Assembly (NCBI GenBank): GCA_964650645.1
Contig: CAZYUH010000001.1
Coordinates: 283,032 to 347,031 of the forward strand
From: an uncultured Candidatus Saccharibacteria bacterium
GTDB taxonomy: Bacteria > Patescibacteriota > Minisyncoccia > Phycocordibacterales > SBAW01
Length of the DNA stretch: 64,000 nt
Direction: 5' to 3'
Position numbers and translations under genes: made by a program. How positions within the stretch are numbered: position 1 is the first letter of the stretch; the number at the start of each line of letters is the position of its first letter. This document shows positions 12,245 to 39,561 of the stretch, piece after piece. The notes beneath the pieces were generated by a model. The model was not told where the DNA came from. It was given only the letters and a program-made list of their open reading frames with translations, and ran no database searches.

Positions 12245-12249
12245 CAAGG

Positions 12250-12278: not shown

Positions 12279-12285
12279 CATGCTT

Positions 12286-12376
12286 GTGCGGGCCGGAGCG
12301 TTGTATCGCATTTGCGGCACCGCGAGGCAGGGTCGTGCGGCAATTTGTACGACGGTACAAATTGAACGCCTGACCA
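12286..12376 (+). repeat. Hairpin element, copy A (a degenerate member of the tRNA-associated repeat family)
   Basis: GCCGGAGCG, hp1, CGCGAGGCAGGGTCGTGCGGC, hp2 (AATTTGTACGACGGTACAAATT), then GAACGCCTGACCA. It lies directly after tRNA-Lys and its terminator. Confidence 0.7.
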
Positions 12377-12411
12377 CTCGTGCAAACCGGTCCGACTTGC
12401 GGCAATGGGAA

Positions 12412-12879: not shown

Positions 12880-12897
12880 GCGCCCACACTAGCAGAT

Positions 12898-13293
12898 TTA
12901 CAAAGGAAGGTCTTGCGCGAAGGCGCCCGCGCCAGAAAGGACGAGCGAAAGCGAGATGACGAGCATGAGGAGCCCGGCGGCGCGGCCCAGCGGGAAGAGG
13001 AGCGGATAGCGGCGCGCCCAGAACGTGTGCTTGAGGGAGATGAGGGCGCCAACCAGGGCGGCTACCTGCGTGTACAGTCCTATGACGAGCAATGCGGCCA
13101 CGGCGGCATGCGCCGCCACGGAGAACCATACCCACCAGCCGCCGCGGCCTACGACCGGCAGGTCTACCTGCGCTATTTGGTCGCGGCGGGCCCATTGCAG
13201 GTACGCGGCGGCCGCGAGCGCGGCGGCGAGGCCCAAGCGCAGCAAAAGCGGCGCGAGGAAGGGGATGAGGAGGCCGGGGAATACGTTCAGCAT
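12898..13293 (-). CDS. Small integral membrane protein (DoxX-like topology), hypothetical
   Basis: A 131-aa ORF with four predicted TM helices. Confidence 0.45.
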   Translation of the reverse strand: MLNVFPGLLIPFLAPLLLRLGLAAALAAAAYLQWARRDQIAQVDLPVVGRGGWWVWFSVAAHAAVAALLVIGLYTQVAALVGALISLKHTFWARRYPLLFPLGRAAGLLMLVISLSLVLSGAGAFAQDLPL

Positions 13294-13295
13294 GG

Positions 13296-13520
13296 CTATT
13301 GGTTCGCGGCGGGAATCATGGGGTTAGGCTGGCCCACCTCCGGGCCGTAGGCGTTGCCGGGGCCCACGGGCGCGGGGGGTGCCAGGAACATGCCGCGCAG
13401 GTCGGAGCGCTCAGGCCCGCCGTTGGCGAACCAGAGGATTACTAAAATGGCCAATATGCCGAGGATGGAGAGCGCCGCCTGGGCCGCAGTCTGCCCTCCT
13501 TCTTTCTTTTCTTCTGCCAT
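13296..13520 (-). CDS. Small membrane protein, hypothetical
   Basis: A 74-aa ORF with a single TM helix (LSILGILAILVILWF). Confidence 0.35.
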   Translation of the reverse strand: MAEEKKEGGQTAAQAALSILGILAILVILWFANGGPERSDLRGMFLAPPAPVGPGNAYGPEVGQPNPMIPAANQ

Positions 13521-13569
13521 GGTTTGGTCGAAATTAGGCCGCGTAACGTCCTTATGACGCGGCGACCCT

Positions 13570-14823: not shown

Positions 14824-14831
14824 CGGTGTGG

Positions 14832-15425
14832 TTATGCGGCGCGGCGCGTACCCAGGCGGCGCAAGGCGGCGCCCAGTCTTTCCTTAATGTTGCCCGCGCC
14901 TTCCGCGCCGATGGCGCGCAGGGCCTCGCGGCTCTCCTGGGAGCGGTAGCCGAGCGCCATGAGGGCCTCGATGACCTCGCCGTCGTCGCCCGACAATGTG
15001 TCGGCTTCGGCGGGCCTCTGCGCCTGCTCAAGCGAGAACGCGTCGCGCAGCTCGACCACGATGCGCTCGGCGCTCTTCTTGCCGATGCCGAAGACCTTGG
15101 TGAGCGCCGCCGCGTCGCCCGCGGCTATCGAGCGCTTGAGGCTCTTTATGTCCGATACGTTGAGCACGCCGAGCGCGGTCTTGGGCCCTATGCCCGACAC
15201 GCCCGTGAGCTGCCTGAAGAAGGAAAGCTCCTCCTTGGCGGCGAAGCCGAAGAGGTCCAAAGCGTCCTCGCGCACCGAAGTGTGTATATATAAGGAAAGC
15301 AGCGTGCCCGGCGGGGTGGAAAGAGTATAGAAGGGGACCCGTACCGCGTAGCCCACGCCGCCCACCTCGATGAGTCCCATGCCGTCCTCTGAGCCGCCCC
15401 AGGTGCCCGTGAGCTTGCCTATCAT
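14832..15425 (-). CDS. ruvA: Holliday junction branch-migration protein RuvA
   Basis: MIGKLTGTW... with HhH motifs (GIGPKTA, GIGKKSAERI) and a C-terminal domain III. Confidence 0.85.
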   Translation of the reverse strand: MIGKLTGTWGGSEDGMGLIEVGGVGYAVRVPFYTLSTPPGTLLSLYIHTSVREDALDLFGFAAKEELSFFRQLTGVSGIGPKTALGVLNVSDIKSLKRSIAAGDAAALTKVFGIGKKSAERIVVELRDAFSLEQAQRPAEADTLSGDDGEVIEALMALGYRSQESREALRAIGAEGAGNIKERLGAALRRLGTRRAA

Positions 15426-15518
15426 GCGTATAAGTGTACAGGCATCGCGGGCCGGGTGCTAGCCAAACCCCTCAGCCTATTGCCTAAAACGCCCCTGTGC
15501 GGTAGTATCCGCGTACAT

Positions 15519-15764
15519 ATGGCAATTACCAAATCGGCAAAGAAGGCCCACCGCCAGTCCCTGCGCAAGAAGGCCCAGAACGCCAAGCGCCGCGACGGCC
15601 TGCGCACGGCCATGAGGACCGCCCGCACGGGCGAGAAGGGCGACGCGAAGACCCTGTCCGAGGCCTACAAGGCTATAGACAAGGCCCTCAAGCGCGGCAT
15701 CATAAAGAAGAACACGGCGGCCCGCCGCAAGGCCCTCGCCTCCAAGCTCCTCAAGAAGGCCTAG
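15519..15764 (+). CDS. rpsT: 30S ribosomal protein S20
   Basis: MAITKSAKKAHRQSLRKKAQNAKRR is a typical S20 N-terminus. The ORF in the track is extended upstream of this start. Confidence 0.85.
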   Translation: MAITKSAKKAHRQSLRKKAQNAKRRDGLRTAMRTARTGEKGDAKTLSEAYKAIDKALKRGIIKKNTAARRKALASKLLKKA

Positions 15765-15765
15765 C

Positions 15766-15792
15766 AAAAACTCCCCGTCCGGGGAGTTTTTG
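15766..15792 (+). terminator. Rho-independent terminator after rpsT
   Basis: AAAAACTCCCCGTCCGGGGAGTTTTTGG. Confidence 0.8.
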
Positions 15793-15810
15793 GTATATAG
15801 TCCTGGAGTA

Positions 15811-15883
15811 CGCTCCTGTCGTTCAATGGATAGGATGCCTCCCTCCGAAGGAGGCGATGCAGGTTCGATTCCTGCCGGGAGCA
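15811..15883 (+). tRNA. tRNA-Arg (anticodon CCG)
   Basis: Acceptor GCTCCTG/CGGGAGC, D-stem GTTC/GGAT, anticodon stem CCTCC/GGAGG with loop CUCCGAA, and T-arm GCAGG-TTCGATT-CCTGC. Coordinates may be off by 1. Confidence 0.85.
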
Positions 15884-15926
15884 CAGCGTTTACTAAACAC
15901 GGTTTCTGGGTTAATCTTGCCTTGAC

Positions 15927-15998
15927 GCTCCCGTCGTTCAATGGATAGGACGCAAGCTTGCGGAGTTTGTGATGTAGGTTCGATTCCTACCGGGAGCA
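15927..15998 (+). tRNA. tRNA-Arg (anticodon GCG), a tandem paralog of the preceding tRNA
   Basis: Same scaffold as the neighbouring tRNA. The anticodon stem CAAGC/GUUUG has one G-U pair, and the loop UUGCGGA has U33 and anticodon GCG. The T-arm is GTAGG-TTCGATT-CCTAC. Confidence 0.7.
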
Positions 15999-16425
15999 CA
16001 AATCAGACACAAAACCAGCCCTGCGGCTGGTTTTGTGCTATTTGTGAGCCGGAGCGATGATTCGCCAGCGGGCGAATCCGCGAGGCAGGGTCGTGCGGCA
16101 ATGCGCGCGACGGCGCGCATTGAACGCCTGACCAAAAGACACAAAGAACCGCCTTGAGGCGGTTTTTGTGCTTATGTGCTGGCCGAAGCCATGTCCTGCA
16201 CTTGCAGGACGGCGAGGCGGGGTCGCGAGGCGTTTGCGCGACGGTGCAAACGAACTCGTGACCACAAAAAACACAAAACCAGCCCTGCGGCTGGTTTTGT
16301 GCTATTTGTGAGCCGGAGCGATGATTCGCCAGCGGGCGAATCCGCGAGGCAGGGTCGTGCGGCAATGCGCGCGACGGCGCGCATTGAACGCCTGACCAAA
16401 AGACACAAAACCGCCTTGAGGCGGT
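15996..16425 (+). repeat. Modular array T-E-T-E-T-E-T. Terminator-like hairpin modules (ACACAAA-stem-loop-stem-TTTGTGCT) alternate with hairpin elements B (16033..16124), C (16165..16254) and B' (16296..16387). Segments 15996..16124 and 16260..16387 are near-identical direct repeats.
   Basis: Each E module is GCCGGAGCG, a variable hairpin with an ACTTGC-type loop, the conserved core hairpin CGCGA-GGCRGGG-TCGYG, a variable hairpin with a GACG-type loop, then GAACNCNTGACCA. Stems differ between copies through compensatory changes. Confidence 0.8.
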
Positions 16426-16452
16426 TCTGTGCTACTTGCGACTATAGTAAAA

Positions 16453-16932
16453 CTAAAGCCCGAAGAGTTCCGCGAGGTGCTCGCCCAGGTGGGCGTCCTG
16501 CTCGACCTCCTGCGCGTGGCGGCGCATGAAGGCGCGCACGTTCTGCGCGCGGGTCCCGACGCCAAGCGGTATCACGAGCTGGGGCGAGAGCATCCCGCTC
16601 GTCGTCACGAGCATCCGCGCCTCGCGGGCCTCGGTTTCGGGCTGGACCCAGAAGGATTGTATAGCGGAGAAGCGGTAGAGCGTGCCGTCCACGGAAAGCC
16701 CGCGGCTGTCGAGGCGCATGCTGTGCTCGCGGGGCCCGCGCGCGGCGAGCACGCCGATAGAGCCCGCGCCTACGGCGATGACGACCGCGAACAATATGTT
16801 GCCGAAGAACAGCGAGAGGCCCGCCGCCGCCGCCGCGCCCAGTCCCAGGCCCCAGTACCAGTCGGCGCTGCGCTCGCGGTGCTCGTGGGTGAGCACGTTC
16901 CAGGATATGCCTTGTCCTTCGTGGCCGCTCAT
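16453..16932 (-). CDS. Hypothetical membrane protein
   Basis: A 159-aa ORF from the ATG at 16932 with two TM helices. The track's upstream GTG start was rejected. Confidence 0.45.
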   Translation of the reverse strand: MSGHEGQGISWNVLTHEHRERSADWYWGLGLGAAAAAGLSLFFGNILFAVVIAVGAGSIGVLAARGPREHSMRLDSRGLSVDGTLYRFSAIQSFWVQPETEAREARMLVTTSGMLSPQLVIPLGVGTRAQNVRAFMRRHAQEVEQDAHLGEHLAELFGL

Positions 16933-16967
16933 TGCTGTAAGTATACCCCCTGCGCTAGTATGGGCGC

Positions 16968-17654
16968 ATGAGTATTTCACTGGTACTGGCGTGGGCGTGC
17001 GCGATAGGGGTGTCCGTCCTGGGCGCGGCGTACTGGGCGCGCCGCTCGGGCCGCTCCGACCCGCTCATGGCGCTCTTCGTCACGCTGGTGCTCGTCTCCA
17101 ACCTCGTCGCCGCCAAGATAGTCGGCTTCGATTTCCTTGTGGCGACGCTCTACGCGCCGGCCGCGACCGTGTTCTTCTCGGTGACGTTCCTCGTCTCGGA
17201 CATCATAAACGAGCGCTTCGGCCGCGCCGAGGCCCAGCGCGCCATCATAATGGCGACGCTCGCGCAGATAGCGTTCATCGCGTTTTCCGAAATCGCGCTG
17301 AGCGCGGCGCCGGCGCCGTTCTTCACGGGGCAGATAGCGTTCGAGGCGGTCTTGGGCGCGGTGCCGCGCATCGCGCTGGCCGGGCTCATCACGTTCCTTA
17401 TAAGCGAGTCGCTCGACGCGTACCTCTATTCCTGGTTCAGGGAGAAGACCGAGGGCCGGCACCTGTGGATGCGCTATGCGTTCAGTTCGCTCCCCGCGAT
17501 GCTCATCGATAGCGTCCTGTTCGTCGTGCTCGCGTTCGCCGGCGTCCAGCCCCTTCTGCCGCTCATTATCGGGCTCACGGTCATAAAGTACCTGGTGGGG
17601 CTCGCCAACGCGCCGCTCATGTACGCGGCCCGCGCGGTCCTGCGCGGGGAATAG
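16968..17654 (+). CDS. Queuosine-precursor transporter family membrane protein (YhhQ/DUF165-like)
   Basis: Multi-TM protein with FFSVTFLVSDIINERFG and a DUF165-like layout. A TAGTAT -10 lies 6 nt before the ATG. Confidence 0.6.
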   Translation: MSISLVLAWACAIGVSVLGAAYWARRSGRSDPLMALFVTLVLVSNLVAAKIVGFDFLVATLYAPAATVFFSVTFLVSDIINERFGRAEAQRAIIMATLAQIAFIAFSEIALSAAPAPFFTGQIAFEAVLGAVPRIALAGLITFLISESLDAYLYSWFREKTEGRHLWMRYAFSSLPAMLIDSVLFVVLAFAGVQPLLPLIIGLTVIKYLVGLANAPLMYAARAVLRGE

Positions 17655-17707
17655 GGGAGCTCGCCGTCCTGGCTAATCGCGGCATTGGTGATATAAGCTA
17701 CGTATAC

Positions 17708-17792
17708 GGAGGGGTGCGTGAGTGGTCGAAACGAGCGGTCTTGAAAACCGCCAGGCCGCAAGGCCTCGTGGGTTCGAATCCCACCCCCTCCG
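17708..17792 (+). tRNA. tRNA-Ser (anticodon TGA)
   Basis: Acceptor GGAGGGG/CCCCTCC, anticodon loop CUUGAAA, a long variable arm (CAGGCCGCAAGGCCT), T-loop TTCGAATCC, and discriminator G. Confidence 0.9.
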
Positions 17793-17805
17793 CCGCGTCA
17801 TATAT

Positions 17806-18216
17806 ATGAAACACATCGGCATAGATTACGGAACCCGCCGCATCGGCATCGCCGTCTCGGACGAGACGGGCTCTTTGGCGTTCCCACTCGGGGTCGTAAA
17901 GGCGGGGCAGGGGGCGCTTGAGGAGGTTGCGAGCATTGCCCGCGAGAACGGCGTGCAGAAAATCGTCATCGGCGAGTCGCGCGACAACAGCGGCAGGGCA
18001 AACGAGGTAATGGAGGACATCGAGCAATTCAAAAGAGATATCGAGGAGCTGACGGGGCTTTCCGCGGACTACGAGCGCGAGTTCTTTACGAGCGCGCTGG
18101 CGGCGCGCCAGTTCGCCCCGGAGGCGAAGTCGCGAAAAAAGAACCCCTCGCACGACGACCTCGACGCGTCGGCCGCCGCCCTCATATTGCAGAGCTACCT
18201 GGACAGGGTAAAGTAA
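17806..18216 (+). CDS. yqgF: Putative pre-16S rRNA nuclease / Holliday junction resolvase-like YqgF (RuvX)
   Basis: MKHIGIDYGTRRIGIAVSD... shows the RNase H-like YqgF signature. The ORF in the track runs upstream into tRNA-Ser and was trimmed. Confidence 0.8.
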   Translation: MKHIGIDYGTRRIGIAVSDETGSLAFPLGVVKAGQGALEEVASIARENGVQKIVIGESRDNSGRANEVMEDIEQFKRDIEELTGLSADYEREFFTSALAARQFAPEAKSRKKNPSHDDLDASAAALILQSYLDRVK

Positions 18217-18220
18217 GCGT

Positions 18221-18553
18221 ATGGACCCTATCTCCATAGACGACGTCAAGAAGGTCGAGATAACGGTGGGCGAGATACGGAGCGCCGAGCGCATCGAGGG
18301 GAGCGACAAGCTCCTGAAGCTCTCGGTGGACTTCGGCGAGGAGTCTCCGCGCCAGGTGCTCTCGGGCATCGGCCGCCACTTCGAGGACGTGCAGGCTTTG
18401 GTGGGGAAGCGTTATCCGTTCGTCACCAACCTGGCGCCCCGCACCATGATGGGCCTTGAGAGCCAGGCGATGATACTAGCGACCGGCGGCTCGGGCGAGG
18501 AGCCGTTCAATCTATTCGAAACGAAGGCGTCTCCGGGCGCCAGGGCGAACTGA
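18221..18553 (+). CDS. Stand-alone tRNA-binding protein (CsaA / Trbp111 / MetRS-C-terminal-like OB fold)
   Basis: A 110-aa protein with VGEIRSAERIEGSDKLLKLSVDFGEE... and YPFVTNLAPRTMMGLESQAMIL, typical of the Myf/EMAP-II tRNA-binding domain. Confidence 0.7.
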   Translation: MDPISIDDVKKVEITVGEIRSAERIEGSDKLLKLSVDFGEESPRQVLSGIGRHFEDVQALVGKRYPFVTNLAPRTMMGLESQAMILATGGSGEEPFNLFETKASPGARAN

Positions 18554-18554
18554 C

Positions 18555-19175
18555 ATGGAGGTGCTGGAGCATATAACGCCGCCGCCCAAGCGCACCCGGC
18601 TGTGGCACTGGTTCAGGGAGCACGCGAGAAGCCGCATGGCGCTGGCGTGGCTGGCGCTCATCGCCTTTACCGACACGCTGTTCTCTCCCATTACGGCCGA
18701 GGCGTTCCTGACCGCGCTCATGCTCGCCCATCGCGACCGCTGGCGCGCGTACCTGCCCGTGGCGCTCGCGTTCTCCGTGCTCGGGACCGTGACGGGGTAC
18801 TGGCTCTTCTATTTCCTGTACCGGTCGTTCGGCGAGGCCCTGCTCGCGTCGTGGGGCTACGCGGGAGCCTTTTCGGCCGCGCAGGAGCTCGTGGGCGCGC
18901 ATATCTTCACCGCGCTCCTCGTCGCGTCGTTCACGCCGCTCCCCGACAAGGTGTTCATCTACGCGGCGGGCATACTGGGCGCGCCGTTCGCCCCGTTCAT
19001 CGCGGGCTTCGCCCTGGGCCGGGGCCTGCGCATGAGTGCCGTCACGTACATCGTCTGGAAGTTCGGCGAGCCCGTGCTCGATATCGCGGACCGCTACTGG
19101 ATGTACGCCAGCGCGGCAGCCGTGGCGCTGTTCGCGCTGTATGCTATCTTGAAATTCCACCTGCTGCCCCTGTAG
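18555..19175 (+). CDS. DedA/YqaA (VTT-domain) family membrane protein
   Basis: A 206-aa multi-TM protein with DedA-like conserved Gly/Phe spacing. Its stop codon overlaps the 5' end of tRNA-Arg(TCT). Confidence 0.5.
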   Translation: MEVLEHITPPPKRTRLWHWFREHARSRMALAWLALIAFTDTLFSPITAEAFLTALMLAHRDRWRAYLPVALAFSVLGTVTGYWLFYFLYRSFGEALLASWGYAGAFSAAQELVGAHIFTALLVASFTPLPDKVFIYAAGILGAPFAPFIAGFALGRGLRMSAVTYIVWKFGEPVLDIADRYWMYASAAAVALFALYAILKFHLLPL

Positions 19176-19237
19176 TTAAATGGATATAACTGCGGACTTC
19201 TAAGCCGCTGTTCGAGGTTCGATTCCTCGCGGGGGCA
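19166..19237 (+). tRNA. tRNA-Arg (anticodon TCT)
   Basis: Acceptor GCCCCTG/CGGGGGC, D-arm GTTA-AATGGATA-TAAC, anticodon loop CUUCUAA, and T-arm CGAGG-TTCGATT-CCTCG. The anticodon stem has one A-G mismatch. Confidence 0.75.
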
Positions 19238-19240
19238 CAG

Positions 19241-19560
19241 AAAAAACACAAAGACCTGCCTTGAGGCAGGTTTTGTGCTTTTCTGTGGGGCGCAGCCATG
19301 TCCCGCACTGGCGGGACGGCGAGCCGGGGTCGCGAGGCGTTTGCGCGGCGGCGCAAACGGACTTGTGACCAAAGTACACAAACAACCGCCTTGAGGCGGT
19401 TTTTGTGACTTGGTGCCGGCCGCAGCGGTGTTTTGCACTTGCAAAACCGCGAGGCGGGGTCGCGAAAAGTTTTTGCGACGACAAAAACTTATTCGTGACT
19501 GTAAAGCAGGCGGTCGCCTTAAGCTCAAGGCAGGTTTTGTGCTTTTCTGTGAGCCGGAGC
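19241..19560 (+). repeat. Modular array between tRNA-Arg(TCT) and tRNA-Val: element D (19281..19372), element E (19412..19500), and a truncated copy (19525..19560)
   Basis: The same conserved flanks and core are present. Hairpins are GTCCCGC/GCGGGAC and GTTTTGC/GCAAAAC in hp1, and GTTTGCGCG/CGCGCAAAC and GTTTTTGCG/CGACAAAAAC in hp2. Confidence 0.8.
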
Positions 19561-19613
19561 GCCGCCGCGCGCTGATAGGAAAAAAGCCGCGTTTCTGCTA
19601 AAGTGTGCCGTAC

Positions 19614-19686
19614 GGGCGATTAGCTCAGTTGGTAGAGCAACTCTTTTACACAGAGAAGGTCACAGGTTCGAGTCCTGTATCGCCCA
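19614..19686 (+). tRNA. tRNA-Val (anticodon TAC)
   Basis: Acceptor GGGCGAT/ATCGCCC, D-arm GCTC-AGTTGGTA-GAGC, anticodon loop UUUACAC, and T-arm ACAGG-TTCGAGT-CCTGT. Confidence 0.9.
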
Positions 19687-19696
19687 CAGATGACAT

Positions 19697-19727
19697 GCGA
19701 AAAAACGGCCGGGGGCCGTTTTTTTGC
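19697..19727 (+). terminator. Rho-independent terminator after tRNA-Val
   Basis: GAAAAAACGGCCGGGGGCCGTTTTTTTG. Confidence 0.8.
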
Positions 19728-19734
19728 ATTGTGT

Positions 19735-19870
19735 CACTGTGCGGCGATACAGAACTCGAAAGCGAGCGCGGGCACCCGCCGAGCGCGGCGGGTCGCGCGA
19801 GCAGGGCCGAGAAATTTTTTGCCGCGTCGGCGGCAAAAAATGTTCTTGGCCGAGTCCTGTATCGCGACGG
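19735..19870 (+). repeat. Variant element copy H after tRNA-Val; it ends in a duplicated tRNA-Val 3' segment (GAGTCCTGTATCGC at 19849..19862)
   Basis: A core-like GCGGCGGGTCGCGCGAGCAGGG, the hairpin TTTTTTGCCGC-GTCG-GCGGCAAAAAA, then a 14-nt exact repeat of the tRNA-Val T-arm and acceptor 3' end. Confidence 0.55.
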
Positions 19871-19944
19871 CTGCCTTTGAATGCCTGGCCACGCATGGCC
19901 CCCGCCTCCTCGACTTAAAACTATAAGAACGCTACAGTGCGCGT

Positions 19945-20634
19945 ATGGAGCCCGTAATCCTGTTCGAGGACGACCATCTGGTGGTCGTCGATAAGCCGGC
20001 GGGGATGATCGTATACCCGGACGGCCGGCACGACTATCCGGCCCTTTCGCATTGGCTCGAGGGCCGCTACGGCGAAGGCGGCTTCTTCTTCGTGCACCGC
20101 ATCGACCGCGAGACGTCGGGCGCGCTGGTCGTCGCAAAAACGGAAGAGGCGTTCGAATTCCTCAAGGAGCAGTTCAAGGGCCGGCAGGTCAAGAAGACGT
20201 ACCGCGCGTTCGTGCACGGCACCTTCAAGGAAGAGCGGGGAATAATAGACAAGCCCATAGGCTCCAGCCGCGGCGGCGCGGGCCCGCGCTCGGCCAAGCT
20301 TTCCTACGGGGTGCAGCGCGACGCGGTGACCATGTACAAGGTGCTTAAGAGCCGGCCGCATAGCGGCGGGACGCAGGAGCCTGTCTCGTACGTCGAAGTG
20401 TTCCCCAAGACAGGGCGCACGCACCAGATCCGCGTCCATTTCGCCTCGGTGGGCCGGCCCATCATCGCCGACAGGCTGTACGGCGCCGGCCGCCCCGCGC
20501 TCCTGGGCTTTGAGCGGCTCGCCCTGCACGCGCTTTCCCTGGCAATCATCCACCCGAGCGGCCAGGAGATGGTGTTCAAGGCCCCTCTGCCGCCCGATTT
20601 CGCCGCGGCGGAAGCGCAATTGCAGGGCAACTAG
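19945..20634 (+). CDS. rluA: RluA-family 23S rRNA/tRNA pseudouridine synthase
   Basis: The catalytic motif HRIDRETSGALVVAKT and a length of 229 aa. Confidence 0.8.
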   Translation: MEPVILFEDDHLVVVDKPAGMIVYPDGRHDYPALSHWLEGRYGEGGFFFVHRIDRETSGALVVAKTEEAFEFLKEQFKGRQVKKTYRAFVHGTFKEERGIIDKPIGSSRGGAGPRSAKLSYGVQRDAVTMYKVLKSRPHSGGTQEPVSYVEVFPKTGRTHQIRVHFASVGRPIIADRLYGAGRPALLGFERLALHALSLAIIHPSGQEMVFKAPLPPDFAAAEAQLQGN

Positions 20635-20742
20635 CTTTGTGTTACAGTCTTGTGGCAATATAAGCAGCTCTAGGCGCTCTTATATATCCGTCGCTCGCTC
20701 GGAAATAAAAGCGGGGCTTATATTTCTCTCACTCGCTAGGAT

Positions 20743-21237
20743 ATGAAAACGGCAGTCAAAACCTCTACGGTAGACATGGCAGCGCGCAAGGACCTCGGCA
20801 TCCGCTCGGGGGACACGGTGCGCGTCTGGCAGAACATCGTCGAGCTCAAGACCGGCAAGGCCGCCAACAAGAAGGAGGTCACCACCAAGAACGTCCGCCG
20901 CCAGGCGTTCGAGGGCCTTGTGCTCGCCGTCAAGCACGGCACCGAGGCGGGCGCCACGTTCACGGTGCGCAAGGTGTCCGGCGGCATCGGCGTAGAGAAG
21001 ATTTTCCCGCTGTACTCGCCGATGATCGACTCGGTCGAGGTGCTGCGCCGCACCCGCACCCGCCGCGCCAAGCTCTACTTCATCCGCGACAAGGCCGCCC
21101 GCGACCAGAAGCGCGCGATGCGCCGCCAGATGAGCGTGACGCCCAAGAAGGCGCTCGCCGATGAGGCTCCGGCAGAGGAGCTGGCAGCCGAGGCTCCGGC
21201 CGAGGCGGTAGAGGCAGGGGCAACTGCCCAGGAGTAA
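20743..21237 (+). CDS. rplS: 50S ribosomal protein L19 (with a C-terminal Ala/Glu-rich extension)
   Basis: [12 protein letters not shown]...[41 protein letters not shown] matches the L19 signature. Confidence 0.85.
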
Positions 21238-21242
21238 GAAGA

Positions 21243-21268
21243 ACCGGCGCTCGCCGGTTTTTTTAATT
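21243..21268 (+). terminator. Rho-independent terminator after rplS
   Basis: AACCGGCGCTCGCCGGTTTTTTT. Confidence 0.8.
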
Positions 21269-21274
21269 TTGCGT

Positions 21275-21303
21275 TTGAGAAATAGGGGAATATTGGGTAT
21301 AGT
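21275..21303 (+). promoter_or_regulatory. Sigma70-like promoter for tRNA-Leu: TTGAGA, a 17-bp spacer, then TATAGT
   Basis: Hexamers lie at 21275..21280 and 21298..21303. The tRNA starts about 18 nt downstream. Confidence 0.55.
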
Positions 21304-21320
21304 GGGGCGGTTCGGCATCT

Positions 21321-21404
21321 GCCCAGGTGGCGAAATTGGTAGACGCACTACCTTGAGGTGGTAGCCCCGGCAACGGGTTGGAGGTTCAAGTCCTCTCCTG
21401 GGCA
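21321..21404 (+). tRNA. tRNA-Leu (anticodon GAG)
   Basis: Acceptor GCCCAGG/CCTGGGC, anticodon stem CTACC/GGTAG with loop UUGAGGU, a long variable arm, and T-loop TTCAAGTCC. Confidence 0.9.
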
Positions 21405-21625
21405 CTAACGACACAAAGGCGCTCCCTGCGGAGCGCTTTGTGCGTTAGTGCCGGCCGCAGCGATGTTTTGCACTTGCAAAACCGCGAGGCGGGTTCGCGA
21501 GCGAATTTGGCGACGGCCAAATTCGACTTGTGAACGCAAACACGAATACTTTTGAACGCCTGACCAAAAAGACGCAAAGACCTGCCTTGAGGCAGGTTTT
21601 GTGCTTTAGTGCCCGAGCGAAGCCG
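21405..21625 (+). repeat. Array after tRNA-Leu: a T module, element F (21445..21571, with an extra partial 3' flank), a T module, and a truncated start of another element
   Basis: GCCGGCCGCAGCG, hp1 GTTTTGCACTTGCAAAAC, core CGCGAGGCGGGTTCGCGAG, hp2 AATTTGGCGACGGCCAAATT, then CGACTTGTGAAC ... GAACGCCTGACCAAAAAG. Confidence 0.75.
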
Positions 21626-21644
21626 CATATGGTAGTGTGTGGAA

Positions 21645-22625
21645 ATGCTTTGGATTATTTTCGCAGCGATAGTCGCGGTAGCCCTGCTCGTCGATTTTTT
21701 CGCCATGAACAGGCAGGGCGCGCACCGGGTCTCCATAAAGGAGGCGGGGCTGTGGTCGGCGGCGTGGGTGGGGCTTTCGTTCCTGTTCGTCGGATGGCTG
21801 TGGTGGTACATGGGCGGCGTCGGGGCCGATCTGGCTGCGCGGGCGGTGGCGCACACCAAGGCCGTCGAGTTCATAACCGGCTACCTCATAGAAAAGGCGC
21901 TGGCGGTCGACAACATCTTCGTCTTCCTGCTCGTGTTCACGTATTTCTCGGTTCCGGCGGAATTCCAGAAGCGCCTGCTCATGTTCGGCATCCTGTTCGC
22001 GCTCGTCCTGCGCGCGGTCATGATACTGCTGGGCGCGTGGCTCGTCTCGGAATTCCACTGGATACTCTACGTGTTCGGGGCGTTCCTGTTCTACACCGGC
22101 ATAAAGATATGGCGCTCGATAGGGAAGGAGCCGGACCTGGAGTCGAACCTGGCGCTCCGGTGGATCAACCGCACCTTCAAGCTGTCCCCGCGGCTGGACG
22201 GCGAGAAGCTCTTTACCGTCCGGGACGGCGTGAAGATGGCGACGCCGCTCTTCGCCGCCATGGTGCTCATCGGCATAGTGGACGTCCTCTTCGCGGTCGA
22301 CTCCATTCCGGCCATATTCGCGGTCACGACCGACCCGTTCATCGTGCTTAGCTCCAACGTGTTCGCCATACTCGGCCTGCGCGCCATGTACTTCCTGCTT
22401 GCTGGCATGCACGAGCGCTTCCACCTGCTCTCGTACGGCCTGTCCATAATCCTCGTGCTTATCGGCGCGAAGATGATGCTCATGGACGTGCTGAAGATCC
22501 ATATCGCCTGGTCGCTCGGCGCCACCGTCGCCGTGCTCGCCGCGTCGGTCGGACTGAGCCTGCTTATAAAGCCCAAGGGCGTGGTGGGGAGCGCGTACCC
22601 GTTCGATTCGAAGGAAGAGGCTTAA
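21645..22625 (+). CDS. TerC/Alx family integral membrane protein
   Basis: The multi-TM TerC signature (AVDNIFVFLLVF, DSIPAIFAVT). The ATG at 21645 is preferred over the GTG at 21639. Confidence 0.75.
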   Translation: MLWIIFAAIVAVALLVDFFAMNRQGAHRVSIKEAGLWSAAWVGLSFLFVGWLWWYMGGVGADLAARAVAHTKAVEFITGYLIEKALAVDNIFVFLLVFTYFSVPAEFQKRLLMFGILFALVLRAVMILLGAWLVSEFHWILYVFGAFLFYTGIKIWRSIGKEPDLESNLALRWINRTFKLSPRLDGEKLFTVRDGVKMATPLFAAMVLIGIVDVLFAVDSIPAIFAVTTDPFIVLSSNVFAILGLRAMYFLLAGMHERFHLLSYGLSIILVLIGAKMMLMDVLKIHIAWSLGATVAVLAASVGLSLLIKPKGVVGSAYPFDSKEEA

Positions 22626-22641
22626 ACACCGCGCCGTTGTG

Positions 22642-22650
22642 TGCTATAAC
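22642..22650 (+). promoter_or_regulatory. Extended -10 element TGCTATAAC for tRNA-His
   Basis: A TGn-TATAAC element ends about 8 nt before the tRNA 5' end. Related motifs are TGCTATAGT at 12069..12077 upstream of tRNA-Lys, and TGCTACACT at 22888..22896 and 59666..59674. Confidence 0.5.
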
Positions 22651-22658
22651 TGCTGCAC

Positions 22659-22731
22659 GGTGGTCGTAGCTCAATGGTAGAGCCCTGGTTTGTGGTACCA
22701 GTTGTTGTGGGTTCGAGTCCCATCGATCACC
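22659..22731 (+). tRNA. tRNA-His (anticodon GTG) with an encoded G-1
   Basis: A G at -1 then acceptor GTGGTCG/CGATCAC, discriminator C, anticodon loop UUGUGGU, and T-loop TTCGAGTCC. Confidence 0.9.
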
Positions 22732-22734
22732 CCT

Positions 22735-26885: not shown

Positions 26886-27557
26886 ATGCAAAGAGGCAAA
26901 TTGCTCGCTTTCGAAGGACCCGGCGTCTCTGATAAGGATGGCCGAATCGAGCGCATACGGGAGAAATCCCCCGTCAAGTGCTTCCTTGTCCGGGATCCGT
27001 GGGGCGACAGCTTCGCTGAACTCGTTCAAGAGCTTCCTGCGTGGATGCGCGCGAACCCGTCGCGCGAGCCGGCCTGGGATTCCTTCCCCTTTTTCAAGGC
27101 CCGCGCGGAGTACGTGAAGAGCGTCATCGAGCCCAGGCTTGAAGAGGGTGTTAGCGTGTTCGCGAGCCCCTATGCGGCGTCAGCGTACGCTTCCCTGATA
27201 GCGGGGGACGGGCGGAGGGAGCTTGGATCGGCATTCGTTTCGATATGCGCTTCGCTTCCGCGCGCGCTGAAGCCCGATGCGTACATTGTCTTGAATATGC
27301 CGCCCGGGACCATGCATTCCCGCATGAAGCTGTGCGCTGAAGACGCGCTTGCGAGAGGGGAGGAGCTCGAGGTCAGGCCGCACAAGTACTACGAGGGCGT
27401 CAGGGACGGGCTTCTTAGGTTTGGAAGGCATGCCCGCGAGACCGAGAAATCCCAGCTTGTCGTCATCAGCGCTGAAAAGGACCCACTGTACATCGAAGAG
27501 AACCTGCGGCATTGGATAGGGGACGTGCTGGGGGTGGAGCAGGCGGCGACCGCGTAA
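26886..27557 (+). CDS. Thymidylate-kinase-like paralog with a degenerate P-loop (GPGVSDKDG instead of GxxGxGKT)
   Basis: It aligns to Tmk blocks (LLAFEG..., VRDPWGD versus TREPGGT, and a DAYIVLNMPPG lid region). A strong AGGAG SD lies 8 nt upstream of the ATG at 26886. Confidence 0.5.
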   Translation: MQRGKLLAFEGPGVSDKDGRIERIREKSPVKCFLVRDPWGDSFAELVQELPAWMRANPSREPAWDSFPFFKARAEYVKSVIEPRLEEGVSVFASPYAASAYASLIAGDGRRELGSAFVSICASLPRALKPDAYIVLNMPPGTMHSRMKLCAEDALARGEELEVRPHKYYEGVRDGLLRFGRHARETEKSQLVVISAEKDPLYIEENLRHWIGDVLGVEQAATA

Positions 27558-27608: not shown

Positions 27609-28982
27609 TCAGGCGCTTGCCGCCGGACGCTCGACGATGTCCTGCTCGCCCCGCTCGTAATAGAAGCGGTCGCCCTCGGTTTCCATGTAGAGATGGAGGC
27701 CGAGATCGCCGAACTCCTCAAGCATGAGCGCGCCGGTCTGCTGCGCGACGCGACGCATGGTTGCGTGGACGTCCAGCCTGGCGCGCCGCTCGACGAAGTA
27801 CGTCATCGCCGGCAGATCGCCGACTTTCTGGCATGGCACGAGCAAGCCCATGGGGCAATAGTACTGCCGCATGAAATCGTCCGAGAACATGTTTTTTACA
27901 TACCCCATCTGCTGGGCGAGGAACGGGCCTGTCTCGTCCCTGTACCTGTCCGGCAGCTGGCTTAGGTACCATGGCGAGAAGCCGTGGCCCGTCGTAAGGA
28001 GCGGCATGCGCTGAGCGACGGACCTGTGCCGCTGGTCGTCGCGGAACGACCCGAAGTCCAGCGCGTAATTGAACCGCATCGTCCCGCATTCGGCCAGGAA
28101 CTTTGGCAGCTCAGTCTGCTTCGGGCGCTTTGCGAGCAGGTCCCGGTGAGCGGCAAGCATGTCCTTGTCGAACCCCGAGAACGCGCCCGCTACGTCCGGG
28201 GAACCGGATTCCGGAGCGGTGTAGTAATAGGACTCCCTCATCCAGTAGTCGAGATAATCCTCGGTATCCCGGTAGCGCTTCTTTTGGAAGGAGCTCGGAT
28301 ACTTCTCATTCAGCGCGTCCTCGAGCGTCTCGGCGACAATGCGCACTTCCGCGAGCGGATGGTGGCGAAGTCTGTCGAGATGGTCGCTGATGTGCCGCAG
28401 TTCGCCGTGCCATGCGAGATTGGTCGACGCCCCCGCGGGGAGGAAGCCGCGCATGATATCGAAGGAGCGCGCCTTTATGGCCTTCTCGTATATGTCTTCC
28501 TTCTCACCCTCTCGCCGCGGGTGCCGCTGCACGAGCGCGTTCTGGACGACGCCAAGCCCCTGGAGGTAGCGCTGCCGCCATCGCTCGAGGAGCCATTTCG
28601 AGCTTTCCGAGCCCTGGGGATCGATGAAGGGCTGCGTCGCGAAGTCTATGTAGCGGGTCGAGGCCTCCTGCCCGTTATAGAGCATGAAGTCCTGTATCGC
28701 CTTGGCCGCGAGCATCGAAACGCCTTCGATAAAGAGCGTAGTCGAGCCGCAGTCGCCTATGGACTTGTGCCCGTAGCCGACATAGAACCGCGACATGAAC
28801 ATCTCGGGCCCGGATTTCCAGAGCTTCTCGAGATGCGCGCGCAAACCGCCGACCGAGCGCGAATGCAGGGCTTGGAGCATGGCCTCTGCTTCGGCGCCGA
28901 TAACCGCTCCGGTATTGAGCACGAATACTTCGCCGCTGCCGGGAAGGGGTCTTGCTGTGTGAATGAGGTCCTTAACCTGCAT
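27609..28982 (-). CDS. thyX: Flavin-dependent thymidylate synthase ThyX, tandem-domain (pseudo-dimeric) form
   Basis: The N-half carries GHKSIGDCGSTTLFIEGVS...EASTRY and LRxxxxxLAEVR ThyX-like blocks but no RHR motif. The C-half carries FRDDQRHRS, where RHR is present, and LDVHATMRRVAQ. The 457-aa length is about twice a single ThyX. Confidence 0.55.
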   Translation of the reverse strand: MQVKDLIHTARPLPGSGEVFVLNTGAVIGAEAEAMLQALHSRSVGGLRAHLEKLWKSGPEMFMSRFYVGYGHKSIGDCGSTTLFIEGVSMLAAKAIQDFMLYNGQEASTRYIDFATQPFIDPQGSESSKWLLERWRQRYLQGLGVVQNALVQRHPRREGEKEDIYEKAIKARSFDIMRGFLPAGASTNLAWHGELRHISDHLDRLRHHPLAEVRIVAETLEDALNEKYPSSFQKKRYRDTEDYLDYWMRESYYYTAPESGSPDVAGAFSGFDKDMLAAHRDLLAKRPKQTELPKFLAECGTMRFNYALDFGSFRDDQRHRSVAQRMPLLTTGHGFSPWYLSQLPDRYRDETGPFLAQQMGYVKNMFSDDFMRQYYCPMGLLVPCQKVGDLPAMTYFVERRARLDVHATMRRVAQQTGALMLEEFGDLGLHLYMETEGDRFYYERGEQDIVERPAASA

Positions 28983-29111: not shown

Positions 29112-29735
29112 ATGCCAAGAGGCAGGTTCATAGCGTTCGAGGGCGGGGAAGGGTCGGGCAAGGACTGCAACATAAGCCGGCTCATGGAGAAATATACCGG
29201 CCGCGACGATATCGTATTTACCCGCGAGCCGGGCGGAACGGAGGCGGGGGAAAGGCTCCGGTCTTTCCTGCTTACTCCCAGGGAGCGTGGGATAGATGTC
29301 GCTCGCGAACTCGTCGTATTCGTTGCCGCGCGCGCCATACTGATTGAAGAGGTGATCATTCCAGCCCTCGATGCGGGAAAGGCGGTGTTCAGCAACCGAT
29401 TCCATCTCTCTACGCTGGCGTATCAGATCCATGCCCGGCAAAGGCTCAACTACCTGCCGCTCCTTGAGGAAATGAGCAGGCTGGTGGTGCAAGACGTCGT
29501 TCCTTACTATATCCTGCTCGACGTAAAGCCGGAGGTCGGCTTGGCGCGGGTGCGGTCTCGCGGCGAGGAACTGACCAGCATCGACGCGGAAGACATCGCG
29601 TTCCATGCGCGCGTCAGGCAGGGATATCTCACGCACGTAAAGGAATTCCAGCATTGCGTCATAGACGCCGGCCAGCCGCCTGAAACGGTGTGGAGCGAAG
29701 TCGAGGCGGAAGTCGACCGGCTTTTCGCCGCATAG
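29112..29735 (+). CDS. tmk: Thymidylate kinase
   Basis: The P-loop IAFEGGEGSGK, TREPGGT and lid motifs. Only the 3' 207 aa of the 583-aa ORF in the track are real. Confidence 0.8.
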   Translation: MPRGRFIAFEGGEGSGKDCNISRLMEKYTGRDDIVFTREPGGTEAGERLRSFLLTPRERGIDVARELVVFVAARAILIEEVIIPALDAGKAVFSNRFHLSTLAYQIHARQRLNYLPLLEEMSRLVVQDVVPYYILLDVKPEVGLARVRSRGEELTSIDAEDIAFHARVRQGYLTHVKEFQHCVIDAGQPPETVWSEVEAEVDRLFAA

Positions 29736-29857: not shown

Positions 29858-30214
29858 ATGGATATCGGGCTTTCGCCTTCACCTTTCGCTGAAGACAAGC
29901 GGCCCTTGGGAGAGGTGTTCTCCCACAAGGATCCGGCGCCGGAGAGGGAGCTGCCGCCGGCATTCGACAGCGCTTGCAGGAAGTGCGGTACCGGCATGGA
30001 GCGGGTGGATCCCGTGTACTGCACGCGCCGCAAGCCGTACGCGACCTTCCAGTGCGCGAACGGCGCCTGCATGGAGCGCCTGCTCATATTCGACGCGCCG
30101 CGTGCGCCGTTCATCATACGGTCCGTTAACTTCCGCCAATGGACGAATTTCTCGGACCAGATCGATGCGGCAATAGAGCAGCGAGAAATCCAGCACGCTG
30201 CCCGCACCGCCTAG
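29858..30214 (+). CDS. Small zinc-ribbon protein (CxxC...CxxC), hypothetical
   Basis: The sequence CRKCGTGM...CANGAC, preceded by the SD-like AAAAGAGAGG. The gene sits between two copies of a terminator-plus-promoter cassette. Confidence 0.4.
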   Translation: MDIGLSPSPFAEDKRPLGEVFSHKDPAPERELPPAFDSACRKCGTGMERVDPVYCTRRKPYATFQCANGACMERLLIFDAPRAPFIIRSVNFRQWTNFSDQIDAAIEQREIQHAARTA

Positions 30215-30324: not shown

Positions 30325-31470
30325 ATGGTCATGCCGTCACAAATGATACGCCGGAACGTGTTCGGCGCATCGCCGACGATACTAAGCGGCGCCGAGAATC
30401 CCATTACCGAAGACCAGATACAGCCGGCCTCGCTCGATTTGCGGCTCGGCAGCGCAGTCTACCGGGTGTGGTCGGCCGCCCTGCCAAGGAAGTACCAGCC
30501 CATACTCGACATGGTTTCTCCCAAGGAAAGGCATAAGTACACATTCAGCCTCGATAAGGAAACCACCAATTTCCTTGAGAAGGACAGCACGTACGTCGTC
30601 GAGCTCATGGAGTCGTGCGCGCTGCCCCAGCACGCGTGGATCGAATTCTCTCCGAAAAGCTCCACTGGCAGGTGCGACGTGTTCGCGCGGGTGCTGTGCA
30701 ATAACAACCCGCATTACGATATGACCCCGAAAGGGTACCAAGGGCCGTTGTGGCTCGAGATAACCCCCTTGTCGTTCGATGTCGGCGTGCGGGAAGGCCT
30801 TTCATTGGTGCAGGGCCGCATCAAGACCGAAGATACCCATATGCTCAGCAACAGGGAGCTCTCCGAGCTCCAGGTCGAGCACGGGGTGCTGTGCGGCATG
30901 GACGGCACGCCCCTTTGCCAAGGCGATCTCAGCATCCATGACAGCGAGCTGTATTACCATGTCGACCTCGACAGGCCGGTGGTCGGATTCGTTGCGAAGA
31001 CGAACGCCGGTATGAGCATTGACCTGACGCAGGGAGGCGGCAGCGGCCTCTTGCACGAGCCTAAGGACTTCTGGGTTCCCATCGAGCGGCCCAAGAACAA
31101 CCGTCTCGTGCTCGCGCCGGGGCTGTTCTACCTGCTCGCGACCAAGGAGCGCACGCGCATACCCCCGACGGTGTGCGGCCAGGTAACCTCGTTCAAGATA
31201 ACGACGGGGGAGATCAGGCCGCATTATGCCGGGTTCTTCGACCCGGGCTTCGGCGGGAGGAATGGCACCAACGGGGTGCTGGAAGTGAGGGCGCGGGACG
31301 TTCCGTTCGAGATAGCGGATGGGGCGCCTATCTGCTCGATGAAGTTCGAGCGGATGCTCGAGGTGCCCGATAAGCTCTACGGTACCGGCATAAAGAGCAG
31401 CTACCCGGGTTCCGGGCCATCGCTTTCCAAGCACTTCAATAGCAGATACGAAGCATGGCAGGCCAAATAA
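30325..31470 (+). CDS. dCTP deaminase / dUTPase-superfamily protein (long DCD-like form)
   Basis: The beta-clip nucleotide motif SLDLRLG, a length of about 381 aa, and an AAAGGAG SD 8 nt upstream of the ATG. The N-terminal extension in the track contains a terminator and was rejected. Confidence 0.6.
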   Translation: MVMPSQMIRRNVFGASPTILSGAENPITEDQIQPASLDLRLGSAVYRVWSAALPRKYQPILDMVSPKERHKYTFSLDKETTNFLEKDSTYVVELMESCALPQHAWIEFSPKSSTGRCDVFARVLCNNNPHYDMTPKGYQGPLWLEITPLSFDVGVREGLSLVQGRIKTEDTHMLSNRELSELQVEHGVLCGMDGTPLCQGDLSIHDSELYYHVDLDRPVVGFVAKTNAGMSIDLTQGGGSGLLHEPKDFWVPIERPKNNRLVLAPGLFYLLATKERTRIPPTVCGQVTSFKITTGEIRPHYAGFFDPGFGGRNGTNGVLEVRARDVPFEIADGAPICSMKFERMLEVPDKLYGTGIKSSYPGSGPSLSKHFNSRYEAWQAK

Positions 31471-32031: not shown

Positions 32032-33291
32032 ATGTACGATTTTATACAACAGCAGGACAAGGAGGCATACGACGCGCTTGCGGGCGAGGAGGCGCGCGAG
32101 GCTGCGGGGCTCGAGCTTATCCCGTCGGAGAATTACGCCTCCAAAGCGGTGCGCGAGGCGCAGGGGAGCATTTTCACCAACAAGTACTCGGAAGGGTATC
32201 CGGGCCGCCGCTACTACGGCGGGCAGGAGTTCGCCGATGCGGTCGAGACGCTCGCACAGGAGCGCGCCAAGAAGCTCTTTGGCGCGAAGTTCGCCAACGT
32301 CCAGCCGCACTCGGGCGCCAACGCCAACATGGCGCTCTACTTTGCTTTGCTTGAGCCGGGCGACACCGTGCTCGGCATGGACTTAAGCCACGGCGGGCAC
32401 CTGACGCATGGCGCGCCGGTGACCGCCGCCGCGAAAGTGTTCAACTTCGTTCGCTACAAGATGAAAGACGCCGAGACCGGCGAGATAGACTACGACGAGC
32501 TGCGCCGCCTCGCGCATGAGCATAACCCCAAGATTATATTGGCGGGCTTCAGCGCGTACTCGCGCGAGCTCGATTACGGGAGGTTCGCCGCCATAGCCAA
32601 GGAGGCCGGCGCGTACGCCGTGGCCGACATCGCGCACATCGCGGGGCTCATCGCGGGCGGGGCGCACAAGAACCCGTTCGAGTACGGGTTCGATGCGATG
32701 ACCTCGACGACGCACAAGACCCTGCGCGGCCCGCGCGGCGGGCTCATTCTCGTACGCGAAAGCGAAGAGATTGCAAAGAAGATAGACAAGGCGGTGTTCC
32801 CGGGCCTGCAGGGCGGGCCGCTCATGCACGCCGTTGCGGCGAAGGCGGTGGCGTTCGGCGAGGCGCTCGCGCCCGGCTTTAAGGACTACGCGGCGCAGAT
32901 TTTAAAGAACGCCAAGGCTATGGAAGAAGTGCTCAAAGCGCGCGGCGTGCGCATGCTCGGCGGCGGCACGTCCAACCATTTGATACTCGCCGACGTAACG
33001 GCATTCAGCATCGGCGGCCGCGAGGCGGAGCGTGTTTTGGATAGCGTCGGCATCACGCTCAACAAGAACATGATTGCGGGCGACGCGCGCAGCCCCGTGG
33101 ACCCCTCCGGCATCCGCTTCGGCACGCCGGCCGTAACCACGCGCGGATTCAAGGAGGCCGAGTGCGCCCGCGTGGCGCATCTCATGCTCGACGCGCTCGA
33201 GAACAGGGAAGACGCGACGAAGCTCGACGCCGTGCGCGCCGAGGTGCGCGCGCTGGCGGAGAAGTTCCCCATACCCGATTCATTCGCCTAA
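32032..33291 (+). CDS. glyA: Serine hydroxymethyltransferase
   Basis: LELIPSENYAS...GYPGRRYYGG, and TTHKTLRGPRGG containing the PLP-binding lysine. Confidence 0.9.
   Translation: MYDFIQQQDKEAYDALAGEEAREAAGLELIPSENYASKAVREAQGSIFTNKYSEGYPGRRYYGGQEFADAVETLAQERAKKLFGAKFANVQPHSGANANMALYFALLEPGDTVLGMDLSHGGHLTHGAPVTAAAKVFNFVRYKMKDAETGEIDYDELRRLAHEHNPKIILAGFSAYSRELDYGRFAAIAKEAGAYAVADIAHIAGLIAGGAHKNPFEYGFDAMTSTTHKTLRGPRGGLILVRESEEIAKKIDKAVFPGLQGGPLMHAVAAKAVAFGEALAPGFKDYAAQILKNAKAMEEVLKARGVRMLGGGTSNHLILADVTAFSIGGREAERVLDSVGITLNKNMIAGDARSPVDPSGIRFGTPAVTTRGFKEAECARVAHLMLDALENREDATKLDAVRAEVRALAEKFPIPDSFA

Positions 33292-36096: not shown

Positions 36097-39553
<3,457 letters not shown>

Positions 39554-39561
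<8 letters not shown>

Follow-up and report, generated by a model that had tools for sequence, protein, structure and literature searches.

A tandem-domain ThyX of Patescibacteria with its signature residues divided between two halves

We analysed a 64,000-nucleotide stretch (the window) of contig CAZYUH010000001.1 from an uncultured Candidatus Saccharibacteria bacterium, which has a G+C content of about 62% and the gene content of a typical bacterial housekeeping region (nusG, rplK, aminoacyl-tRNA synthetases, polA). Part of it carries, in this order, nusG, rplK, a tmk-like gene, thyX on the opposite strand, tmk, an open reading frame (ORF) of 118 amino acids (aa), dcd, dut, glyA, a gene for a DUF2914 protein and argS. 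The thyX gene is the subject of this work. Its ORF occupies exactly positions 27609-28982 of the minus strand and encodes 457 aa, in agreement with an earlier note on this DNA, made from the sequence alone, that had pointed to a protein of double length. The product belongs to the flavin-dependent thymidylate synthase family, where we would place it in a divergent ThyX subfamily with tandem domains. Each half on its own shows homology to an entire ThyX domain, the N-terminal half by sequence profile and HHalign comparison and the C-terminal half by fold search and HHalign comparison.

Translation of the coordinates places the motifs quoted in the earlier note where it had them. The N-half holds the blocks GSTTLFIEGVS...EASTRY and L205-R206-HHPLAEVR and lacks the Arg-His-Arg (RHR) motif, at whose expected position it reads D98-F99-M100; the C-half holds FRDDQRHRS, which contains RHR at aa 318-320, and the H406-ATMRRVAQ block. 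The features of the locus, together with the full-length phage homologs discussed below, are collected in the table.

Table. Features of the tandem ThyX gene, its neighbours and its phage homologs. Positions are nucleotides of the window, except for the phage homologs, which are given by locus; Tm, Thermotoga maritima; Mtb, Mycobacterium tuberculosis.
Feature	Position	Strand	Basis
Tandem-domain ThyX gene, 457 aa	27609..28982	-	ORF call, Pfam Thy1 and fold
N-half, aa 1-245, complete ThyX domain without RHR	28248..28982	-	HHalign and residue map
C-half, aa 246-457, diverged trimmed ThyX domain	27609..28247	-	Fold search and HHalign
G71-H72-K-S74-I-G-D77 = Tm G52-H53-x-T55-x-x-E58	28752..28772	-	Residue map
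D98-F99-M100, N-half at RHR position (Tm R78-H79-R80)	28683..28691	-	Alignment
S108-T-R110-Y111 = Tm S88-G-R90-Y91, catalytic substrate loop	28650..28661	-	Conservation
R178 = Tm R147	28449..28451	-	Alignment, 96/105
R196 = Tm R165 (Mtb R190), second-subunit FAD-phosphate contact	28395..28397	-	86/105
R318-H319-R320, RHR FAD-binding motif = Tm R78-H79-R80	28023..28031	-	Alignment, conservation
Q324-R325-M326, shortened degenerate SxRY-loop remnant in C-half	28005..28013	-	Alignment
P391 at Tm R165 position in C-half, second-subunit role lost	27810..27812	-	Alignment
R400 = Tm R174, dUMP-activating arginine, same subunit as RHR	27783..27785	-	105/105
R444, C-terminal tail R-G-x-Q-D-I, family-specific	27651..27653	-	105/105
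Tmk-like paralog, 223 aa, degenerate P-loop EGPGVSDKDG	26886..27557	+	Homology to Tmk
tmk, dTMP kinase, 207 aa, divergent from thyX	29112..29735	+	PF02223 E 9.2e-35
Cys-rich ORF, 118 aa, between tmk and dcd	29858..30214	+	Gene call on identical contigs
dCTP deaminase, two-domain (DCD_N + DCD_C), 381 aa	30325..31470	+	PF06559 5e-41, PF22569 1.8e-45, PF22769 4e-45
dut, dUTPase, 142 aa	31598..32026	+	PF00692 2.1e-19
glyA, serine hydroxymethyltransferase, 419 aa, 5,10-methylene-THF source	32032..33291	+	PF00464 1.2e-151
Tandem ThyX of Vibrio phage vB_VmeM-Yong MS32, full-length homolog	L165 4013-5398		
Tandem ThyX of Vibrio phage BONAISHI, full-length homolog	L164 3902-5344		

The presence of two ThyX domains emerged from several comparisons. 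The Pfam Thy1 profile (PF02511) matched aa 66-229 with an E value of 1.8e-10 and 41.3 bits, above the gathering cut-off of 24.8 that defines membership of the family, and this match lies in the N-half only; the C-half of the window's own protein had no Pfam match even at E<=10. When the C-halves of 20 relatives were scanned separately, 16 matched Thy1 (best E 1.1e-5), and no other Pfam family was matched by more than one of them. The earlier note had suggested counting Thy1 domains in the protein, which taken literally finds the one significant stretch and would wrongly refute a second domain. Against a canonical ThyX profile made of T. maritima TM0449 (in a sequence identical to 1kq4_A), 78 viral ThyX ORFs and three PDB-derived fragments, HHalign scored the N-half at 96.1% (E 2.9e-9) with our first family alignment and at 97.6% (E 3e-12, T. 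maritima residues 3-209) with an alignment of 105 sequences. The corresponding values for the C-half were 79.4% (E 1.5e-5) and 95.4% (E 1.9e-8), and in these alignments either half covers essentially the entire 220-residue ThyX domain. The claim of two ThyX-like halves thus stands, with the second one reached through fold search, HHalign and the Thy1 matches of the relatives.

Structure prediction pointed in the same direction. The AlphaFold2 monomer model of the full-length protein has a predicted local distance difference test (pLDDT) score of 88.7 and a predicted template modelling (pTM) score of 0.88, the latter indicating a defined packing of the two halves, and its top 50 Foldseek matches in the PDB were all ThyX, with 10-19% identity to the solved ThyX structures listed. 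The C-half modelled alone (pLDDT 79.5) had 141 PDB matches at E<=1e-3, of which the 50 listed were all ThyX, with a best E of 1e-5 and a TM-score of about 0.5-0.55. Both models thus have the ThyX fold. Within the full model a pattern of strand-helix, long helices and strand-helix-helix occurs twice, as E81-89/H90-97...E185-193/H195-205/H211-227 in the N-half and as E301-309/H310-317...E380-389/H390-400/H407-427 in the C-half (E, strand; H, helix). Searches of PDB sequences were far less informative, with no meaningful match for the single sequence, none for the C-half profile and only the Corynebacterium glutamicum ThyX at E 0.24 for the full-length profile; the PDB copy that we searched contained no tandem ThyX.

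The one Thy1 stretch and the lack of Pfam matches in the protein's own C-half would agree with a normal ThyX of one domain that is followed by an unrelated C-terminal extension, or with a fusion produced by assembly or gene calling. We consider both versions extremely improbable. The unrelated extension was rejected on the ThyX fold and profile similarity of the C-half; moreover, the N-half without RHR could not alone bind flavin adenine dinucleotide (FAD) in the manner of ThyX. The artefact was rejected since an identical protein was found on six independent contigs and the family comprises at least 3,828 homologs (E<=1e-3 in a collection clustered at 90% identity), those listed being of similar length but for one fusion, with a relative encoded in 477 stretches of Genome Taxonomy Database (GTDB) species-representative genomes.

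Subsequently, the signature residues of ThyX were mapped onto both halves in T. maritima (Tm) numbering, and their conservation was determined over 105 diverse full-length members of the family. All of them are found somewhere in the chain (H53, T55, E58, RHR, S88, R90, Y91, R147, R165 and R174), distributed as follows. The N-half retains the positions of H53 (H72, 101/105), T55 (S74, 105/105) and E58 (D77, 94/105), and in the C-half the loop bearing the first two is deleted or unalignable and the third is the variable E298 (24/105). The substrate loop is kept in the N-half, where S88, R90 and Y91 correspond to S108 (105/105), R110 (105/105) and Y111 (99/105); in the C-half the loop following RHR is five residues shorter than in T. 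maritima ThyX and reads A-Q-R-M, so that the serine is lost, R325 is present in only 40 members and M326 (65/105) stands at the tyrosine position. Another invariant residue of ThyX, R147, binds the phosphate of deoxyuridine monophosphate (dUMP); it is R178 in the N-half (96/105) and Q373 in the C-half (99/105). R165 is R196 in the N-half (86/105) and P391 in the C-half, a placement based on the alignment of the G-[ED]-L-[R/P] motifs of the two halves, where proline is found in 56 members and arginine in only eight.

The reverse is seen for the FAD-holding residues. R318 and R320 of the C-half RHR are present in 105 and 104 members and H319 in 91 (Q in 13), and the preceding R74-Q75 of T. maritima is R314-D315 (105/105 each). 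At the same positions the N-half has D98 in 86 members, the others listed being N, H, E and Q, with arginine outside the five commonest residues, and K94-A95 (K94 in 99/105; A95 in 46/46 of the first alignment). R174 corresponds to the invariant R400 in the C-half (105/105), and in the N-half to R206 in 41 members or R204 in 17; judging from this alignment, the N-half's own equivalent is evolutionarily relaxed. The equivalents of the three conserved arginines R147, R165 and R174 are thus all present in one chain, as R178 and R196 in the N-half and R400 in the C-half. The N-half also keeps H208 and E212, equivalent to H178 and E182.

This distribution becomes meaningful in light of the known ThyX architecture, in which each active site is built from three subunits (PMC6514825). 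Subunit A provides RHR and M. tuberculosis (Mtb) R199 (Tm R174), subunit B provides Mtb S71 and R190 (Tm T55 and R165), and subunit C provides Mtb S105, R107 and Y108 (Tm S88, R90 and Y91) (PMC6514825). In T. maritima, R174 activates dUMP, S88 and Y91 assist methylene transfer and R90 tunes Y91 (PMC8316439). On the evidence of the aligned sequences the partition is real: the C-half keeps only residues of the FAD-holding subunit and the N-half only those of the other two roles together with the R147 equivalent. The complementary retention claimed in the earlier note is therefore sharper than it had been described, as it follows the three subunit roles of the solved tetramers.

We consider it likely that the protein is a tandem-duplicated and specialised ThyX that converts dUMP to deoxythymidine monophosphate (dTMP) in a pseudo-tetramer of two complete and two degenerate sites. 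In the proposed history, the ThyX domain would have been duplicated in tandem long ago, and the two copies would then have specialised. The C-half would act in the A role, with R318-H319-R320 holding FAD and R400 activating dUMP. The N-half would act in the B role, with S74 and R196 directed toward the FAD phosphates, and also in the C role, through the substrate loop residues S108, R110 and Y111, the R147 equivalent R178 being kept as well. Two chains would form a D2-like pseudo-tetramer, N1-C1-N2-C2, with a true dyad relating the two C-halves. Each such dimer would contain two complete catalytic sites, each composed of one C-half and both N-halves, and the two positions centred on N-halves would be degenerate. 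If only sites with the C-half as A and the N-halves as B and C were used, purifying selection would be expected to leave the observed partition. How the chains assemble, how many of the sites work, the FAD stoichiometry and the enzyme activity are what we infer, and the pseudo-tetramer is proposed from the residue partition and the architecture of the solved enzymes (PMC6514825).

Several observations weigh against this proposal. No single domain contains a contiguous RHR-x7-S-x-R-Y signature; the N-half reads DFM-x7-S-T-R-Y, and the signature is complete only across both domains. The protein reaches 27 bits with the NCBIfam equivalog TIGR02170 (thyX), below its cut-off of 87.9. The profiles of the two halves do not match each other significantly (HHalign E 0.069 with shallow alignments and 0.019 with 105 sequences), so that the duplication must be old and the case for it runs through the similarity of each half to canonical ThyX. 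No biochemically characterised member of the subfamily was found in the searchable literature. Finally, the family has invariant residues without a canonical counterpart, namely R286 (104/105), H406 (105/105), T408 (103/105) and R444 (105/105), which could point to degenerate sites, or to a chemistry, other than those proposed here. In the C-terminal tail G445 (101/105) and I449 (100/105) are likewise conserved, and the family-specific set as a whole comprises R286-P287, Q373, V405-H406-x-T408 and R444-G445-x-Q447 (nt 27765-27767 and 27651-27653 among the positions).

One explanation of this set is that evolution has reshaped the degenerate pseudo-sites, giving a new pocket that would bind a ligand or regulate the enzyme (the reductant or an allosteric nucleotide might occupy it), in an obligate half-of-sites ThyX. 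Such a pocket would explain the family-specific residues, and we regard it as an unlikely extension of the scheme. Alternatively, all four pseudo-symmetric sites could work, with family-specific residues such as R286, R444 or H406 standing in for RHR, S88 and Y91 at the N-centred ones. The invariance of these residues and of T408 would fit, as would the retention of H208 and E212 in the N-half. However, an N-centred site would have to draw its B and C residues from the C-halves, which have lost them: the loop of H53 and T55 is deleted or unalignable, R165 and R147 are replaced by P391 and Q373, and the equivalents of S88 and Y91 are gone. Moreover, the R174 equivalent of the N-half is relaxed, as a dead site predicts. 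Four working sites therefore seem quite unlikely to us, and the specialised pseudo-tetramer with two complete sites remains the preferred reading.

The genes around thyX provide the context for the proposed dUMP to dTMP reaction. As the earlier note had described from the sequence, tmk, dcd, dut and glyA flank it, and Pfam matches above the family thresholds identify dCTP deaminase, dUTPase, dTMP kinase and serine hydroxymethyltransferase genes. Together their products would cover the steps from dCTP to deoxythymidine diphosphate (dTDP): Dcd would convert dCTP to dUTP and Dut would convert dUTP to dUMP, the tandem ThyX would then form dTMP with methylene-tetrahydrofolate (methylene-THF) from the adjacent GlyA, and Tmk would phosphorylate dTMP to dTDP. 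From this context we assign the cluster a putative role in dTMP/dTDP synthesis. The DCD at 30325-31470 is of the long two-domain type (381 aa). Regarding the claim that no thyA is present, tblastn detected neither thyA nor folA nor a single-domain thyX within the 64-kb window (all E>0.9), and it is for the window that the claim holds.

The arrangement is confirmed as conserved in related Patescibacteria. Among the best 80 of the 477 matching stretches, some of them truncated loci, the region within 8 kb of the relative included glyA in 44, tmk in 41, dut in 29 and dcd in 23, and also rplK in 53 and nusG in 50. The second Tmk-like ORF, at 26886-27557, behaves differently. It had been counted as a Tmk paralog, and homology to the adjacent Tmk is indeed clear (28% identity, E 4e-12). 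It scores below the family cut-offs (PF02223 E 1.1e-4, 22.3 bits against 27; TIGR00041 E 1.4e-8, 34.7 bits against 83.25), and at the position of an intact P-loop (GxxGxGK[ST]) it reads EGPGVSDKDG. As a conserved member of the cluster it was rejected, since none of the 80 related loci has such an ORF, not even those nearest to ours, with 81-84% ThyX identity. Judged from its P-loop, the protein is probably unable to bind ATP normally and not a working kinase; a pseudo-kinase or nucleotide-binding protein particular to this lineage may be what it represents. The 118-aa ORF between tmk and dcd contains CRKCG...CTRRKPYATFQCANGAC and had no significant family match, DUF1936 remaining below threshold at E 0.059; it may encode a small zinc-ribbon protein.

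The tandem form of ThyX is widespread in Patescibacteria, also termed the candidate phyla radiation (CPR), and in some large phages. The 120 homologs listed are 444-501 aa in length with the exception of one fusion of 704 aa, and their record titles name Kaiser-, Adler-, Uhr-, Nomura- and Paceibacteria and similar groups. The closest relatives (81-84% identical) come from metagenome-assembled genomes machine-labelled 'Saccharibacteria', and NCBI and JGI already annotate the family as 'FAD-dependent thymidylate synthase' or 'ThyX'. A copy of the protein studied here is carried by a contig of 754 kb. The C-half profile matched 231 clusters at 50% identity (E<=1e-30), and, fragments aside, its match was always C-terminal in proteins of about 430-520 aa. 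The 704-aa exception (P0102, Candidatus Paceibacterota, L006 7251-9386) is a natural fusion in which a DCD/dUTPase-like domain (PF22769, aa 3-179) precedes the tandem ThyX, a Rosetta-stone link that ties this enzyme to the supply of dUMP.

These data also bear on whether the ThyX fold might here serve another chemistry, such as a flavin-dependent modification of UMP or dCMP. PolB, a ThyX homolog, acts on another nucleotide and offers a comparison for such a case. A score far below the thyX equivalog cut-off and the 10-19% identity to the solved ThyX among the matches listed would be in keeping with it. Each canonical dUMP-binding, FAD-binding or catalytic residue is, however, invariantly kept in one half or the other, the dcd, dut, tmk and glyA neighbourhood recurs in many genomes, a DCD/dUTPase-like domain is fused to the enzyme in one lineage, and the window holds no second candidate for a thymidylate synthase. 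Another chemistry is thus very unlikely in our view, and dTMP synthesis by the tandem ThyX is the function that we favour.

Compared with the canonical homotetrameric ThyX, also named FDTS (T. maritima TM0449, PDB 1O26/1KQ4; M. tuberculosis 2AF6/3GWC; PBCV-1 2CFA), both halves of the present protein have the same predicted fold, and the pathway context inferred for it, dUMP to dTMP with methylene-THF, is the same. ThyX chemistry needs no dihydrofolate reductase, and a genome with ThyX usually has no other thymidylate synthase, thyA being absent. Here, in contrast to the canonical enzyme, a single chain carries two domains, with SxRY in the first and RHR in the second, and the predicted assembly has two complete sites where the homotetramer has four.

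Full-length homologs are also present in the Vibrio jumbo phages vB_VmeM-Yong and BONAISHI (genomes of about 280-290 kb), with 29-33% identity over 93-98% of the query. Both phage proteins divide the key residues between the halves in the same way, keeping S74, S108, R110, Y111, R178, RHR, R400, H406 and R444. They differ from the bacterial form in that R196, R206 and P377-type details are missing in places; their annotations read hypothetical or 'thymidylate synthase-like', and their loci do not have the dcd/dut/tmk/glyA neighbourhood. In the BFVD a Vibrio phage model matched the whole structure (TMq 0.77), and a 'thymidylate synthase' of 491 aa from Microcystis phage LMM01 matched it with TMq 0.61 in an alignment of 497 columns. 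The named cellular relatives nearest to the Vibrio phage protein again belong to the CPR, and no named Chloroflexi or Chlamydiae were found among the matches of a homolog search seeded with it.

The chlamydial ThyX (Chlamydia trachomatis CT632) is reportedly also of about double length and enzymatically active. Our search of the literature on tandem or fused ThyX, on ThyX in Patescibacteria or CPR and on CT632 returned only one paragraph by Valas & Bourne (2009, PMC3224940), who remark on a duplicated and uncharacterised ThyX of Chloroflexi and a small number of further species. The Chloroflexi enzyme, as that paper describes it, shares the internal domain duplication with ours, which may be a derived character common to Patescibacteria and Chloroflexi or may have arisen independently in the two. 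Unlike the present analysis, that paper gave no analysis at the level of residues, and it predates the Patescibacteria genomes. No paper on the residue partition or the biochemistry of a tandem ThyX was found in the searchable literature; the partition by subunit role thus appears to be new, the duplication itself having been noted in 2009.

Elsewhere in the window, eight tRNA genes on the plus strand (Lys, three Arg, Ser, Val, Leu and His) lie within about 10.5 kb at 12172-22733, upstream of the cluster. Furthermore, the plus-strand gene at 36097-39561 encodes a class I aminoacyl-tRNA synthetase of 1154 aa (tRNA-synt_1 and Anticodon_1), inside which a histidine-phosphatase-superfamily domain (PF00300, E 1.1e-32) occupies aa 514-679, an unusual insertion.

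In ThyX, an antibacterial target, three subunits share each active site, and the sorting of role residues into two domains by evolution provides an independent natural test of this three-subunit model, in which the kept and lost residues agree with the role assignments derived from crystal structures. For specialists the surprise is limited, as degenerate pseudo-symmetric fusions are familiar and the duplication was noted in 2009. As an experimental scaffold, the protein would offer two sites without symmetry averaging and would allow the residues of one role to be mutated separately, which is impossible in a homotetramer. A large part of the Patescibacteria apparently uses the tandem ThyX as its thymidylate synthase. 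Of the standard models, Pfam recognises only one half of the protein and the NCBIfam equivalog rejects it, and where the metabolism of CPR genomes is reconstructed with equivalog models, dTMP synthesis may be counted as absent in error.

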